NCBI GenBank assembly: GCA_020348445.1
Contig: CP070751.1
Span: forward strand, 3,832,076 to 3,843,664
DNA from: Thermoplasmata archaeon
GTDB lineage: Archaea; Thermoplasmatota; Thermoplasmata; GCA-020350865
Direction: 5' to 3'
Length of the DNA: 11,589 nucleotides
Shown: in pieces, positions 1,676 through 11,589 of the stretch
Position numbering within the stretch: position 1 is the stretch's first letter
Layout: every line of letters starts with the position of its first letter
The notes under the pieces: model-generated
Databases searched by the model: none
What the model was told of the DNA's origin: nothing
Seen by the model: the letters and a program-made list of their open reading frames with translations, nothing else
Made by a program: the position numbers and the translations under genes

Positions 1676-4600
1676 ATGGTGGCGACCATGCGAAAAACTG
1701 TCATATCTCTTTTAATTGTTAGCATTATGATAAGTGCGAATTTCATAGGAATGATTATGTTCGACACCAAGGATGGCATAAAAGATTCCTTGGATAATGA
1801 TGATGAGGATTTAATCCTGGATTTTCAAGAAGATAACCAAGAGAGCATATCATACGTTCCTGACAAAGATACTGAAAAAAATTGGGCCGAAGGTGAGATA
1901 CCATGGCATATTCTTTCTTCGGACAGCAACCCCTCAGCCAAGCTGTTTCTTGACCAGGGCATATTAGCAATTGAATTCCGATTGCCAAAAATGGAATTTG
2001 AAAAGACCTCCTACGGAGAGATCATAAATCTAGAAGGTTGTGATCCTTTACTTGAGCCTGGGAATCCTTTGGTCCCATTGTGCAAGTTCTTTGTTGCGGT
2101 TCCATCCGGCTCTGAAGTAAAAGACTTGGAAATAGTTGAGGCACAAACCAGAATCCTGGAAGGAAACCATATCATCGCGCCCTATATTCCCATGACTTTA
2201 GACGGCCAAATGCTACCTATTCAAGCAAATGCCGATGTGTACACAAGCTCAGCTCTATTCCCTGATAGTGTCTATGAAATCTCTGGACCAAACAAACTCC
2301 GACACTTAGACGCTCTTGAAATTTCGCTTTATCCTGTTAGGATTAGGCCTGCCATGGAAACTGTCGAGGTTTGCGATCTTCTGAGGATTAAAATCGAGCT
2401 TGAAGCCACTGACGGGACACAATTGGCTCCACCTTCTGTTTCTGTAAATGACGACCTTGACAGAAGTATGCTTAAATTGATTGTCAATTCAGGGGATGTG
2501 AACCTCTGTACCTCATACGAATCCACACATTCTTCTTCCACCAGAGCCCCTTCTACAATCTACCACACCATGGGCTTTCACATCCTAGCAAATGCCATTC
2601 ACCCAGTAAAGGACACCACAGTGGGCAATTTAGCTGGAGTTACTCTTCTTTCTAAGAACGATGACCAGTACTATGTTGCTGAGGCTGGACAAACCATGTA
2701 CATCGACGGCTTCGACATCGGGTCTGCCAATGTATCTGCATCACTGGATTATGCAGTTCTTCACCTCCAGTACAAAGGCACTGATGGATATGATGGAACA
2801 AGCAAGGTAAGATGGGCATTGGAGGGAGATTCTCTTAAGGAAACCGACATACAGCCAAAGGATCTAAATGACACGGAAAGCCCGGATATGAGTTATGACC
2901 TTCTTGGTTATTTGGGAAGTCCCTCAACTGTATCAGATCTTGCAGATTTGGATATCGAGTATTCAGAGAACGGTGTTTTCGCAGGCTCAAAGGATATACC
3001 ATTTGACTACGTCTGGATAGAATTTGCGTACAGAGAGGAACTTGTTGGAGAATCCAAATATCTCATCATAACGAATTTTGCATTGGCAGATGAATTAAGA
3101 CCACTTGCTGAATTTAAAACTGAAAGATTATCAGTTGACACCCAGGTTTATGATATAGAATGGATAGACGATAATTGGGATGGACCTAATCTTCTACACC
3201 GAATCCGCGATTTTATACGGTCCATGTACGAGAATTACAGCACAGAATATATTCTTCTTGGAGGGGATGAGAATATTATTCCAACCAATGATACAAACTC
3301 TATTTACGATTCCTTTTATGTGGATGTCAATGGATGGGCTTATCCTGACCTTGCTATTGGCCGCTTGCCTACAACCCAGGATGACATCATGGAGGCCATG
3401 GTTAACGACATTCTAGCTCATCAGCGCGACATGCGACCTTGGAAAAGAAATCATTACCTTATTGGAACCAATGTTTTCTCCTCAGGAGACGGACAAAGGG
3501 ACATGTATTATATCAGAGACAACTCCCTTTCGGGCCATGATCTTACATTTTATGAGGACTATGAAATCGAAGGTAACGTTACAAGAACACGAACAATCAA
3601 TACCTATAATCTTGGTATGGGCACAAGTACAATAACAGGCCATGGCTCAAAATATGGATGGTACAAGAACAATGGATCACAGAACTTTTTCAACAAAAAC
3701 GACGTAAACAATTCCTTAACCAATTCTGACATGCGGGGCTTTGTTTGGTCAAGTACATGCTCAAGCGGTGGTTTTGTGGGAAGTTACGTCTGCATAGGTG
3801 AGATGTGGGTGATTGCTAGGGATGGAGGGGGAATCGGATACGTTGGCGCTGCAAAGATTGCGTTGTACTCATCAACAAAGGCATTGTATCGAGGTTTTTG
3901 GGATGCGTTCGATAAATTACTTGATGCAGGAGAAGATCCAACACAGGGGGTGTGCCATTACCTGGGAATGAATAAATGCAATTACAGGATATACGTCCTG
4001 TTCGGTGATCCCCAGGTGGGGCTTACTGCAAGTGATCCGAATCTGGATTTGACAACAGGTTACTTCGATTCAGGCAATTTTGCAGATAGATCATGTTATG
4101 ATCAAGGTGAGCAAGTGAGTATCAAAACAAAAATTCGCTTTCCTGCAAGCACCCTCCCAAGGGGAGTCTATTTCAATCTTACCATAAGAAACGAGGAAGG
4201 GGATGTCTTCCACCTCCCCGAGATATTTGTAAGCGATCCTGATGATCTAGAAGAAACGATATTTTGGAACTGGAGCATTCCTGCAGGAGCACCTAATGGA
4301 GTATATAATATCACATTCCGCATCTACAATACAAGCCAGGGGTGGGAGTCGATATACATAAACGACACCTACTTCTTTGTGGGCTACAATGCATCCATCA
4401 TCTGGGTGGAGCAGGTATATTCAGAGGTAATCGAGGGTGATACTGTACTGTATTGGGTTCATATGGATAACGTCTTAAATCCGATTCCATCAGCCACCAT
4501 CAAGATCAGCTTAGAAGGAAGGGATTATGACCCATATATGACCCCTTTTAATTATTACGGCTCAAATACCACATCAATACCCACTGCCATGGATTTTATA

Positions 4601-6799
4601 GTGGAGGTCGAGATACCTGTATTTGAGCCTGGTACCTACAATGTGACAGCAGAATTGTATGTTAATTGGGCCCATATGGACTCGGCAGCAGGAGACGAGA
4701 CCGAGGTTCGGGGAATACGCATTTTGAATGTAGAATTCAATCACCCCATCTACTTTAGAGAGGATACAGTCGAGATCAGCTTCCATTACTTTGCATTCTC
4801 TGATTTTACTGGAGATGCTATTCTTGATGCAGAGGAGCAAGCCTCTCTGCTTTGCGATCCATGCAATTTCTATAACGGAACCAACTGGCTCAATTTCACT
4901 TGGACTGTACCCAAGTTCCTGCCAAATGATACATACAATCTCCACATGGAAGTAAACGGTCTAGGAAGAAGCCTAGAGACAGGTACAAAATCCATGAGGG
5001 TTGTTACAATTCGGGAAATACTTGATAAAGGTGAGCGATGGCTCATACCCATGCAGCAGCCAGGTGGAGGATGGAATGAGTCACTGTGGAGCTGGCCACC
5101 AGGTCCAAATTACAATGAGACTGCAAGGGTAATGCAGGCTCTTTTATGGTCAGGGATGGATCAATCAGATCCTGTAATACAGCAGGCTGCAGATTATATT
5201 GAGGATAGCCTGAACCTCAGCAGACCCGGAAGAATCGACAATTTTGCCCAGACCATATGGGCCATGGTGGAGGCTGGACGTGGATCTTCACCTAAGATCC
5301 AGGACTCACAAGAGGTCATTCGTAATATGCAGAATTGGATCTTTGAAGAAGAAAATTGGACATTGATATTTAATGGCAATATGAATGATACATGGCTTGT
5401 TAATATATCAGGCTATGATGATGGAGGTGGCCTACTTTATTCCCAGGAATATAGCGGTAAGGTTAATGTATCGTGGGGAGACTTTTGGGTGAACTTCTCT
5501 GTTCTTCCTGGGACAGTAACATTGAACGTGACCATAAATACTTCAGCAGGCTGGGTAAATGCTTTTATTTTTCCTACCTACTTCAAATTAGACCCAAAGA
5601 TGCTATGGGACGGAATTAGGCTGGACGATTCCCAGGGACCTGGTGATGGTATTAAATGGAATTGTACAGCTTCAGAAGAATTCGAATTCGACCGCGGCTG
5701 GGGTAGGCAAAAAGGCCTTGCCTCTCTTGCAGGATTCACAGCCTGGGGAGTCATTGGTCTCTTGCAGTATGGAGTTCTTGGACCCTTCGAACAAGAGGCA
5801 AAAACAACAGGTGTTGAGTGGCTATTGGACAACCAAAGCGCCGACGGCAGCTGGTATCCCATTGGTGAAGATATTGGGTTAATGGGCGGAGGGGAAGAAT
5901 ATCCTGGCGCCCAAGCAGGAGCCTGGGCAGCAGATCCGATTCAGAACACTGCTTTACCTGTGATTGCCCTGGTCGCAAACGGTACACTTGGGCAACCAGT
6001 TGATGATGCAGTTGCCTTCCTTAAATCCCAGCAGGCAGAAAATGGTTCGTATCCCTTCAGTACATGGTCATGGGATCATTCCATTAACGTCATATCAACT
6101 GCGCATACTTTACGGGCATTGAGGCGTACAGGGCATATGTTCGAAGTTAACATGCCATATGTGAGAGAGGGAGCTCGGTGGCTGTGTGCAGCCCAGAGCA
6201 AGTTCACAGGAAATTGGGAAAATTGGGGTAACTTCACACGAGTCGCATCTGAGGCCATGATGGCACTTGCTTGCATTAAACTCTCAAGGACAATGGAGCT
6301 TCAACCAGGTTGGAACCTTATTTCTCTGTCTCTAATTCAGGAAGATACCTCGCTTTCTTATGTTTTGGATTCTATAGATGGTGATTACGATGCTGTGCAG
6401 TGGTACGACCCCACGGATTCTGCTGATTCTTGGAAGCATCACAAAGTGGGCAAGCCCAATGGCAACGACCTATTCAATTTAAATGAGGAAATGGGAATAT
6501 GGATTCATATTACTAATCCTGCTGGTGCCACACTGAGATACAACGGCTTTGTGCCAAAGAGAAATCTAGAAATCGATCTTCATATGGGCTGGAATCTGGT
6601 TGGTTTTCCTTCTCAATGTTATAGGAATAGAACCATGGCCTTGAATAACGTTGATTTTGGTATGGAAGTCGACGCGATCTTGACCTATGATGCACATATA
6701 CAAAAGTGGATTAAGGTGGGAGAGCTGGATTATATAGAACCTGAGGTTGGATACTATATTCATGCAAGGACAGATATCACCTGGGAAGTTACCATCTAG
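1676..6799 (+). CDS. Secreted multidomain C25 (gingipain-family) cysteine peptidase: signal, C25 propeptide, inserted beta domain, catalytic domain, 3 Ig/MG2-like domains, QW-repeat alpha/alpha barrel, tandem GWNL C-terminal domain
   Basis: The N-terminus is MRKT plus a hydrophobic stretch. The likely start is ATG 1688, which has GGTGG 5 nt upstream. The propeptide-like segment is GNPLVPLCKFFVAVPSGS...LEISLYPVRIRP. Catalytic-domain hallmarks are KYLIIT (3056), YILLGGD, DLAIGRLP, TGHG (His656, 3641), STC (Cys695, 3758), GGIGYVG and LFGDP (FGDP at 4001), which match RgpB YVLLVGD/FIGRF/TGHG/VAC/VFGDP. QW-like repeats are WLIPMQQPGGGW, WLLDNQSADGSW, FLKSQQAENGSY and WLCAAQSKFTGNW. Confidence 0.9.
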   Translation: MVATMRKTVISLLIVSIMISANFIGMIMFDTKDGIKDSLDNDDEDLILDFQEDNQESISYVPDKDTEKNWAEGEIPWHILSSDSNPSAKLFLDQGILAIEFRLPKMEFEKTSYGEIINLEGCDPLLEPGNPLVPLCKFFVAVPSGSEVKDLEIVEAQTRILEGNHIIAPYIPMTLDGQMLPIQANADVYTSSALFPDSVYEISGPNKLRHLDALEISLYPVRIRPAMETVEVCDLLRIKIELEATDGTQLAPPSVSVNDDLDRSMLKLIVNSGDVNLCTSYESTHSSSTRAPSTIYHTMGFHILANAIHPVKDTTVGNLAGVTLLSKNDDQYYVAEAGQTMYIDGFDIGSANVSASLDYAVLHLQYKGTDGYDGTSKVRWALEGDSLKETDIQPKDLNDTESPDMSYDLLGYLGSPSTVSDLADLDIEYSENGVFAGSKDIPFDYVWIEFAYREELVGESKYLIITNFALADELRPLAEFKTERLSVDTQVYDIEWIDDNWDGPNLLHRIRDFIRSMYENYSTEYILLGGDENIIPTNDTNSIYDSFYVDVNGWAYPDLAIGRLPTTQDDIMEAMVNDILAHQRDMRPWKRNHYLIGTNVFSSGDGQRDMYYIRDNSLSGHDLTFYEDYEIEGNVTRTRTINTYNLGMGTSTITGHGSKYGWYKNNGSQNFFNKNDVNNSLTNSDMRGFVWSSTCSSGGFVGSYVCIGEMWVIARDGGGIGYVGAAKIALYSSTKALYRGFWDAFDKLLDAGEDPTQGVCHYLGMNKCNYRIYVLFGDPQVGLTASDPNLDLTTGYFDSGNFADRSCYDQGEQVSIKTKIRFPASTLPRGVYFNLTIRNEEGDVFHLPEIFVSDPDDLEETIFWNWSIPAGAPNGVYNITFRIYNTSQGWESIYINDTYFFVGYNASIIWVEQVYSEVIEGDTVLYWVHMDNVLNPIPSATIKISLEGRDYDPYMTPFNYYGSNTTSIPTAMDFIVEVEIPVFEPGTYNVTAELYVNWAHMDSAAGDETEVRGIRILNVEFNHPIYFREDTVEISFHYFAFSDFTGDAILDAEEQASLLCDPCNFYNGTNWLNFTWTVPKFLPNDTYNLHMEVNGLGRSLETGTKSMRVVTIREILDKGERWLIPMQQPGGGWNESLWSWPPGPNYNETARVMQALLWSGMDQSDPVIQQAADYIEDSLNLSRPGRIDNFAQTIWAMVEAGRGSSPKIQDSQEVIRNMQNWIFEEENWTLIFNGNMNDTWLVNISGYDDGGGLLYSQEYSGKVNVSWGDFWVNFSVLPGTVTLNVTINTSAGWVNAFIFPTYFKLDPKMLWDGIRLDDSQGPGDGIKWNCTASEEFEFDRGWGRQKGLASLAGFTAWGVIGLLQYGVLGPFEQEAKTTGVEWLLDNQSADGSWYPIGEDIGLMGGGEEYPGAQAGAWAADPIQNTALPVIALVANGTLGQPVDDAVAFLKSQQAENGSYPFSTWSWDHSINVISTAHTLRALRRTGHMFEVNMPYVREGARWLCAAQSKFTGNWENWGNFTRVASEAMMALACIKLSRTMELQPGWNLISLSLIQEDTSLSYVLDSIDGDYDAVQWYDPTDSADSWKHHKVGKPNGNDLFNLNEEMGIWIHITNPAGATLRYNGFVPKRNLEIDLHMGWNLVGFPSQCYRNRTMALNNVDFGMEVDAILTYDAHIQKWIKVGELDYIEPEVGYYIHARTDITWEVTI
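6290..6796 (+). repeat. Tandem GWNL C-terminal domain, copy 1 (protease)
   Basis: LQPGWNLIS...LHMGWNLVG...GYYIHARTDITWEVTI; GW motifs at 6308 and 6587. Confidence 0.85.
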
Positions 6800-6820
6800 G
6801 CGTTTTTCCCTCTCTATTTT
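6800..6820 (+). terminator. Possible archaeal oligo-T/pyrimidine terminator
   Basis: GCGTTTTTCCCTCTCTATTTT immediately after the TAG of the protease gene. Confidence 0.35.
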
Positions 6821-6825
6821 ACCCA

Positions 6826-6839
6826 GTTTACATGTAAAC
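6826..6839. promoter_or_regulatory. Perfect 14-bp palindrome GTTTACATGTAAAC, candidate transcription-factor operator
   Basis: Exactly self-complementary. It abuts an ATTAAAT element (6841-6847) that lies about 27 nt upstream of ATG 6869. Confidence 0.5.
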
Positions 6840-6840
6840 C

Positions 6841-6868
6841 ATTAAATCTATTATTTATTTTTATATAT
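6841..6868 (+). promoter_or_regulatory. Candidate TATA box(es) for a leaderless transcript of the first beta-helix gene
   Basis: ATTAAAT at about -27 from ATG 6869 and TTTTTATATATA at about -25 from the alternative ATG 6884. No Shine-Dalgarno sequence precedes either start. Confidence 0.35.

Positions 6869-11589: not shown

Follow-up and report, generated by a model that had tools for sequence, protein, structure and literature searches.

A duplicated beta-strand module ends many exported proteins of a Thermoplasmata genome and is a candidate surface tether

The stretch of DNA analysed here, called the window, comprises 11,589 nucleotides of a Thermoplasmata archaeon genome (G000:C1:3832076-3843664; position 1 is the first letter of the stretch). 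It contains four genes, all in the same orientation, of which genes 2, 3 and 4, encoding a peptidase and two beta-helix proteins, finish in one common module of ~165 aa that we refer to as the tail. In its usage, the tail follows the pattern of known localising appendages: it is single, terminal, passenger-generic, found on exported proteins and better conserved than its passenger. In sequence, it matches none of them, and its modelled fold has no clear match among them. By analogy with such appendages, the likeliest role among those considered, which we propose tentatively, is the non-covalent, non-catalytic tethering of exported proteins to the surface.

A hidden Markov model (HMM) was built from the three tails of the window and scored those tails at E 1e-95 to 1e-103, in agreement with the initial annotation, which had noticed a shared ending of the three proteins. 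The copies are as follows.

Tail copy 1, 6281..6796, + strand: 172 aa including a lead-in strand; half 1 at 6281-6556, half 2 at 6557-6796; GWNL motifs at 6308 and 6587; HMM E 8e-100 over model positions 1-172, reaching the last residue.
Tail copy 2, 8471..8986, + strand: GWNL motifs at 8498 and 8777; HMM E 9e-103; the copy used for the structure model.
Tail copy 3, 11110..11589, + strand: GWNL motifs at 11137 and 11416; HMM E 3e-95 over model positions 1-161.

Copy 3 retains its 160 N-terminal residues, and ~11 at its end are lost with the contig end. The measurements given in the initial annotation were reproduced: the GWNL pairs are spaced by exactly 279 nt in each copy; the distance from the first glycine to the last residue, taken from the motif positions, is 163 aa in both complete copies; and copies 2 and 3 are identical at 103 of 151 positions counted from the first GWNL. 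The module is also an internal duplication, as had been suggested: hhalign aligned its two halves with a probability of 98.4% (E 5e-15, 67 columns). No hydrophobic helix, and thus no transmembrane helix, was detected in the tail, whose sequence ends W-E-V-P-L. The NRT sequon, said to be kept in every copy, is present in all three copies of the window, but just 37 of 70 paralogues have a sequon at that site.

Paralogues were counted by searching the open reading frames (ORFs) of the genome with the three-tail HMM at a domain E < 1e-5. According to this search, 102 ORFs carry the tail, the best at E 1e-103. As expected for a C-terminal module, the domain ends at most 15 residues from the stop in 88 of the 102. 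The other 14 include some ORFs cut by contig gaps, some whose second half is divergent yet extends to the end and four in which the tail is truly internal, so that the tail is not strictly terminal. In these four, it precedes a Spherulin4-like region, a beta-helix with a PEF-CTERM-like anchor, a LamG-like region, and a linker with a transmembrane helix, respectively; the Spherulin4-like and LamG-like labels were assigned by eye from the sequence, without a profile match. Short matches of 214-269 aa were considered as stand-alone tails and rejected, being fragments truncated by contig ends.

The prediction that the carriers are exported was borne out by an N-terminal export segment in 93 of the 102 ORFs, consisting of K/R followed by an uncharged stretch with a median of 21 aa. 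Another transmembrane-like segment occurs in only one tail ORF. Of 410 large ORFs that looked exported in a crude hydrophobicity screen, 87 (~21%) end in the tail. The tail genes occupy 61 loci, 28 of which hold two to four genes in tandem. In these arrays, the downstream gene starts within the last 8 codons of the tail before it; genes 3 and 4 are an example, with the GTG start of gene 4 inside the end of gene 3 (8965-8989). The conserved (M/V)(C/R)LGGP N-termini in the arrays are the other-frame reading of the C.WEVPL end of the upstream tail. This overlap suggests translational coupling inside the arrays.

The tail matched no characterised catalytic or carbohydrate-binding family in Pfam and NCBIfam scans, as the anchoring role put forward in the initial annotation had implied. 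The tails of the three window proteins had no match in either database at E ≤ 0.1, and 42 tails scanned singly at E ≤ 5 yielded nothing beyond sub-threshold motif matches. Two candidate relatives were rejected. DUF1737 was matched by 13 of the 42 tails merely over 15 residues around GWNLVGYP and under the cut-off, a motif coincidence. Kelch appeared in a PDB sequence match to a designed Kelch protein (E 6e-9), which is the sum of six repeats with an independent E-value of ~50 each, and in Pfam matches of 3 of the 42 tails (E 0.02-0.1); the module has two units and no propeller of five to seven blades. No solved structure was related to the tail by sequence or profile. The literature on the motif, or on C-terminal domains in these lineages, yielded no description of the module. 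Thousands of its carriers are at present 'hypothetical' or 'beta-helix repeat' proteins, and the family is so far without name or annotation.

An AlphaFold2 model was calculated for tail copy 2 with 42 paralogous tails. The model (predicted local distance difference test, pLDDT, 96.5; predicted template-modelling score, pTM, 0.90) is nearly all beta and comprises two like units, each of six strands and one short helix; the two helices span 4-5 residues. Half 2 modelled alone gave a pLDDT of 95.6. As modelled, the tail forms a self-contained, non-catalytic module (~165 aa) of two homologous beta units, each 80-90 aa long. Foldseek found no match in the PDB at E ≤ 0.001 for either the whole model or half 2. 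In structure alignment against ~48,000 representative chains, the highest Z score was 4.3 with the whole model and 5.4 with the half, both below the meaningful range. The best match of the half was RCK_C / TrkA_C (e.g. 4ys2; 65 residues, 3.0 Å), which resembles it in being a small beta-strand unit with one short helix; at 3% identity, its Z of 5.4 is within the range of common arrangements. RCK_C is a cytoplasmic ligand-sensing domain. The statement that the tail has no known fold refers to solved structures alone. One BFVD model, a 'putative hemin binding protein' of an uncultured marine phage, matches the tail at a template-modelling score of 0.67. A tblastn search of phage records with the tail gave no match. 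Among its conserved residues, the tail has many Trp, Tyr, His, Asn and Gln (W 4.3%), and sugar-binding surfaces are often enriched in such aromatic and polar residues. Invariant positions of the 172-aa unit are N12, W51, K58, G103-N105, P110 and G157.

Of 910 paralogue pairs of this genome with alignable passengers, 902 have a tail that is better conserved than the passenger, with median identities of 58% for tails and 32% for passengers. Tail identity reaches 77% between proteins without detectable passenger similarity. A tree was built from 90 tails of five genomes, each of a different family; the tails grouped by genome (6 label changes versus a shuffled mean of 52), and the 15 tails of one genome formed a single clade at 99. 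For 37 full-length genes of two of these genomes, the best match lay in the own genome for 36 of 36 tails and 27 of 35 passengers. The other 8 of the 35 scored passengers best matched another genome; there, tail and passenger histories disagree. Clustering of the tails by genome is the pattern expected of a shared lineage-level partner. Concerted evolution of the tails was rejected as weakly supported, as most passengers likewise group by genome.

The passengers proved to be as diverse as had been proposed. They include C25 and M14 peptidases, NosD beta-helix proteins, PQQ propellers, SBBP, CBM_4_9 and Laminin_G_3 proteins and, in bacteria, metallophosphoesterases and a CARDB+fn3 protein. Among carriers with precomputed Pfam domains in a protein library described below, NosD/beta-helix proteins made up most, and the others included Peptidase_M14, PQQ-like propellers, SBBP, CBM_4_9 and Laminin_G_3. 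Because the passengers are unrelated, the role of the tail appears to be generic rather than bound to one substrate. Single-linkage clustering of the passengers was uninformative, as linker domains in common merged 68 of 79 into one group. Homologous beta-helix passengers terminate variously in the tail, a membrane anchor or other conserved ends: 46 of the genome's 104 beta-helix paralogues end in the tail and 12 in a transmembrane segment, and others end in a transmembrane helix plus an extended cytoplasmic portion that often includes a zinc ribbon. A second conserved ending ('type B') occurs on 18 ORFs (e.g. G000:C1 4489882-4492953 and 3175528-3178353) and consists of an FN3-like unit, then ...GYDTMGIPL...DWYCDNIP...GINYF...GYQISTS..F.FIG. 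This ending is collinear with one GWNL half, but the hhalign comparisons were not significant (E 0.43 and 0.01), and it is not counted as a homologue of the tail.

The tail is not confined to one locus: in addition to the 61 loci of this genome, matches to the profile were obtained in 27 of 41 related genomes, which represent 16 of 28 genera, and numbered 1 to 86 in each. In an even sample of the phylum, 17 of 121 genomes had the tail, and in several near-complete small-genome families the profile had no match. A library of 1.84 billion protein representatives contained 4244 matches at E ≤ 1e-3, 310 of them at E ≤ 1e-30; among the best 150 of the 4244, the tail was at the very end in all. A scan of species-representative genomes located the tail in Thermoplasmata, in metagenome-assembled genomes (MAGs) labelled Methanomassiliicoccales or 'Methanobacteriota', and in four Anaerolineae MAGs with 3-16 matches each.

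These last occurrences overturn the initial view of the tail as an archaeal device, as Anaerolineae contigs encode it on Tat- and Sec-exported proteins. Two of the contigs are clearly bacterial: one carries gyrA, prfB, ftsY and a pyruvate kinase gene, and the other carries Wzc-like and polyprenyl glycosylphosphotransferase genes. The Anaerolineae tails are also C-terminal, on metallophosphoesterases with a twin-arginine signal, a CARDB+fn3 protein and a Propeptide_C25+Peptidase_C25 protein. The Anaerolineales C25 carrier (L234:10001-13675, - strand) has the architecture of gene 2 and adjoins exopolysaccharide genes (Wzc-like kinase, priming glycosyltransferase). The seven bacterial tails formed one clade, with a value of 97 in the Shimodaira-Hasegawa-like approximate likelihood-ratio test (SH-aLRT). 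The occurrence in Anaerolineae therefore indicates that the tail is not an archaeal invention tied to the archaeal envelope.

The initial annotation had further predicted a co-occurring partner family, and none was found among the genes near the tail loci of this genome. The enrichment analysis covered genes within 5 kb of the tail loci in this one genome, with a group of 178 large proteins left out. Three enriched neighbour 'families' were rejected as antisense shadow ORFs of beta-helix genes. The sole real enriched family among those inspected comprises 13 small secreted proteins of ~165 aa, 12 of which adjoin tail genes. These proteins have a signal ending in SGSAVA and a C-terminal IYGPEIDAVG[WY] (e.g. 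G000:C1 1484401-1484943 and 4774134-4774643). Their genes lie mostly directly upstream of, and are confined to, one beta-helix subfamily.

We also considered the C25 peptidase as a PorU-like sortase of the tail. This role was rejected for want of co-occurrence between tails and C25: the peptidase is missing from 13 tail-positive relatives, including four genomes that are >90% complete and carry 17-37 tails, and is present in three tail-negative genomes. Gene 2 scored 42 bits against the PorU model, whose cut-off is 420 bits. An archaeosortase A homologue is encoded in the genome (G000:C1:4780632-4781375; 146.7 bits, cut-off 75), and PGF-CTERM had no match there. One of the proteins with an internal tail (G000:C1:1054974-1059101) ends in IPEF, a transmembrane helix and RKKRRK, and has a PEF-CTERM-type look.

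In the explanation that we tentatively favour, the module has spread by shuffling to the C-terminal ends of numerous unrelated proteins exported by Sec or Tat. After export, the tail would bind a single shared component, probably an envelope glycan or protein of the producing cell, and would persist on the mature protein. Proteases, beta-helix proteins and other exoproteins would thereby be held on or near the cell as opposed to diffusing into the sediment. Precedents exist in the GW modules of Listeria (InlB, Ami) and in SLH and CWB2 repeats, which are likewise C-terminal tandem units of ~80 aa on surface proteins, each with a conserved Gly-Trp. Such repeats attach non-covalently to an envelope polymer, and attachment of this style is the usage that we provisionally envisage for the tail. 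The likeness does not extend to sequence, and no clear likeness in fold was seen: the GW (PF13457), SLH (PF00395) and CWB2 models matched none of the 42 tails at E ≤ 5, no GW, SH3b or SLH-like structure appeared in the top 50 of either fold search, and SLH is a helical fold whereas the tail model is nearly all beta.

Several observations weigh against tethering. Two of the four proteins with an internal tail also have a C-terminal membrane anchor, so the tail is not a simple anchor substitute. The long N-terminal hydrophobic stretch may be an uncleaved signal anchor, in which case the tail would lie farthest from the membrane. Grouping by genome mostly reflects lineage-specific expansion, because 27 of the 35 passengers, too, have their best match in their own genome. 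The envelope of Anaerolineae is unlike that of archaea, making a receptor tied to lineage less likely than a generic ligand or self-association. Finally, the neighbour analysis yielded no binding partner, and the IYGPEIDAVG family is not a general one because it is limited to one beta-helix subfamily.

The main rival is that the tail is a substrate- or particle-binding module, CBM- or PPC-like (CBM, carbohydrate-binding module), sticking enzymes to detrital polymers or minerals. We consider this somewhat doubtful and less probable than tethering. PPC domains and CBM appendages are similarly non-catalytic C-terminal beta domains; they occur on secreted peptidases and on further enzymes, in both domains of life. 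The presence of the tail in both Thermoplasmata and Anaerolineae, unrelated anaerobic heterotrophs of sediments, would suit a ligand independent of any host-encoded partner, and the failure to find a partner gene near the tail loci speaks for the same explanation. So do the conserved surface, rich in aromatic and polar residues, the outward orientation that the tail would have behind a signal anchor, and its occasional position inside proteins or alongside a membrane anchor. By contrast, the substrates of the passengers differ widely (peptidases, phosphoesterases, beta-helix proteins, propellers), and the tail occurs as one copy per protein that is nearly always terminal. Neither PPC nor any carbohydrate-binding family of Pfam matches it, and no CBM was clear in the fold searches, the sole one listed being CBM65B at a Foldseek E of 0.6. 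An assembly role, in which the tail binds a repeat scaffold in the manner of dockerin, or other tails, to form complexes or a surface lattice, seems unlikely. It would account for the strong conservation of the tail and its grouping by genome across unrelated passengers, and is in keeping with the rigid pseudo-dimer of two like units in the model and with the tandem overlapping arrays; self-association without an extra partner would also fit the distribution across domains. Dockerins, like the tail, are one small module on many exoenzymes, with lineage-specific variants, in Bacteria and Archaea. However, dockerin (PF00404) is a short calcium-binding helical module, unlike the nearly all-beta tail, which has no Pfam match, and neither a cohesin-like scaffold nor any scaffold with repeated receptor domains was found within 5 kb of the tail genes of this genome.

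Export or sorting by a dedicated machine, after which the tail would be removed or swapped for a lipid or glycan anchor, is very unlikely. The model for this explanation is the C-terminal domain (CTD) of type IX secretion system (T9SS) cargo in Bacteroidota (Por_Secre_tail; gingipain CTD; de Diego et al. 2016, PMC4804311). The tail is used as this CTD is: each is a folded beta domain that forms the very C-terminal end of dozens of unrelated secreted proteins in one genome, C25 peptidases among them. The archaeosortase A homologue would supply a candidate enzyme. The tail differs in that it is twice the size, is a tandem duplication and is sometimes internal, as in the four proteins above, and in that it lacks a co-occurring PorU-like C25, 13 tail-positive relatives being without C25. 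The CTD model (TIGR04183 / Por_Secre_tail) matched neither the three window proteins at E ≤ 0.1 nor the 42 tails at E ≤ 5, and no T9SS CTD structure, an Ig-like beta-sandwich of ~80-100 aa, was among the best fold matches, which were all weak. To our knowledge, archaea and Anaerolineae, the hosts of the tail, have no T9SS. Some bacterial carriers bear signals for Tat, a route that exports proteins in folded form. The passenger types have no conserved junction motif in common. PGF-CTERM substrates of archaeosortase have a motif, a transmembrane helix and a basic cluster; the tail lacks the helix that archaeosortase signals need and has its W-E-V-P-L end instead. A strongly conserved 165 aa that are well folded in the model are also large for a mere signal. 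The least credible alternative is a folding or stabilising cap, or intramolecular chaperone, without a binding role. The tail does sit directly behind large beta-rich passengers, with a short linker between, but the passengers have quite different folds, half 2 is modelled as folding alone, and conservation far above that of the passengers is not expected of a cap.

More broadly, the tail could represent an undescribed fold that serves as a universal surface-docking tag, acting through a shared receptor or tail-tail contacts, and holding on the cell up to a fifth of the large exported proteins of abundant sediment Thermoplasmata and of some Anaerolineae, a proposition that we regard as doubtful. 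If true, it would amount to a dockerin- or SLH-like system made from entirely different parts and common to both prokaryotic domains. Much of the extracellular breakdown of proteins in marine sediments is attributed to sediment Thermoplasmata (Thermoprofundales/MBG-D and relatives), for which C25 peptidases are signature enzymes (PMC6461988, PMC9585477). The tail bears on the question of how uncultured archaea retain costly exoenzymes near the cell, and, in this lineage, about 100 proteins per genome with one strongly conserved, unannotated module provide a concrete, expressible handle on it. Its presence on a like C25 protease in Anaerolineae means that the module was either traded or conserved across domains of life. 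Defining the tail as a domain would improve the annotation of thousands of 'hypothetical' and 'beta-helix repeat' proteins.

The genes of the window are as follows.

Gene 1, 23-1342, + strand: Ig-like domains, a transmembrane helix, an acidic linker and a C-terminal CxxC...CxxC cytoplasmic zinc ribbon.
Gene 2, 1676..6799, + strand: 1707-aa exported peptidase of the C25 (gingipain) family, containing a propeptide, the C25 domain, repeats resembling squalene cyclase and the tail.
Gene 3, 6869..8989, + strand: 706-aa exported protein with a right-handed beta-helix of NosD type and the tail; NosD E 1e-48, Beta_helix E 1e-23.
Gene 4, 8965..11589, + strand, open at the 3' end: second NosD-type beta-helix protein; NosD E 1e-97.

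The product of gene 2 matches Peptidase_C25 (E 1.6e-46) and Propeptide_C25 (E 5e-12) in Pfam, and its N-terminus has K/R followed by 22 aa without charge. Between the protease and the tail, residues ~1349-1490 contain squalene-hopene-cyclase-like (alpha-alpha toroid) repeats and a weak MG2 match, an unusual mix for a gingipain-family enzyme. The end of gene 4 is absent because a run of ~100 N, joining two MAG contigs, begins directly after base 11589. The genome is a 5.16-Mb MAG whose 'single contig' consists of MAG contigs concatenated by N runs (35,300 N in total), so that genes at the joins, including gene 4, are artefactually open. The nearest paralogue of gene 4 ends ...YYIHAKTECVWEVPL, followed by a stop, the pattern that the initial annotation had modelled for gene 4. 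In this genome, 70 ORFs of at least 300 aa, including many beta-helix proteins, end in a zinc ribbon like that of gene 1, a seemingly recurrent design of surface proteins whose zinc-ribbon tail is cytoplasmic.

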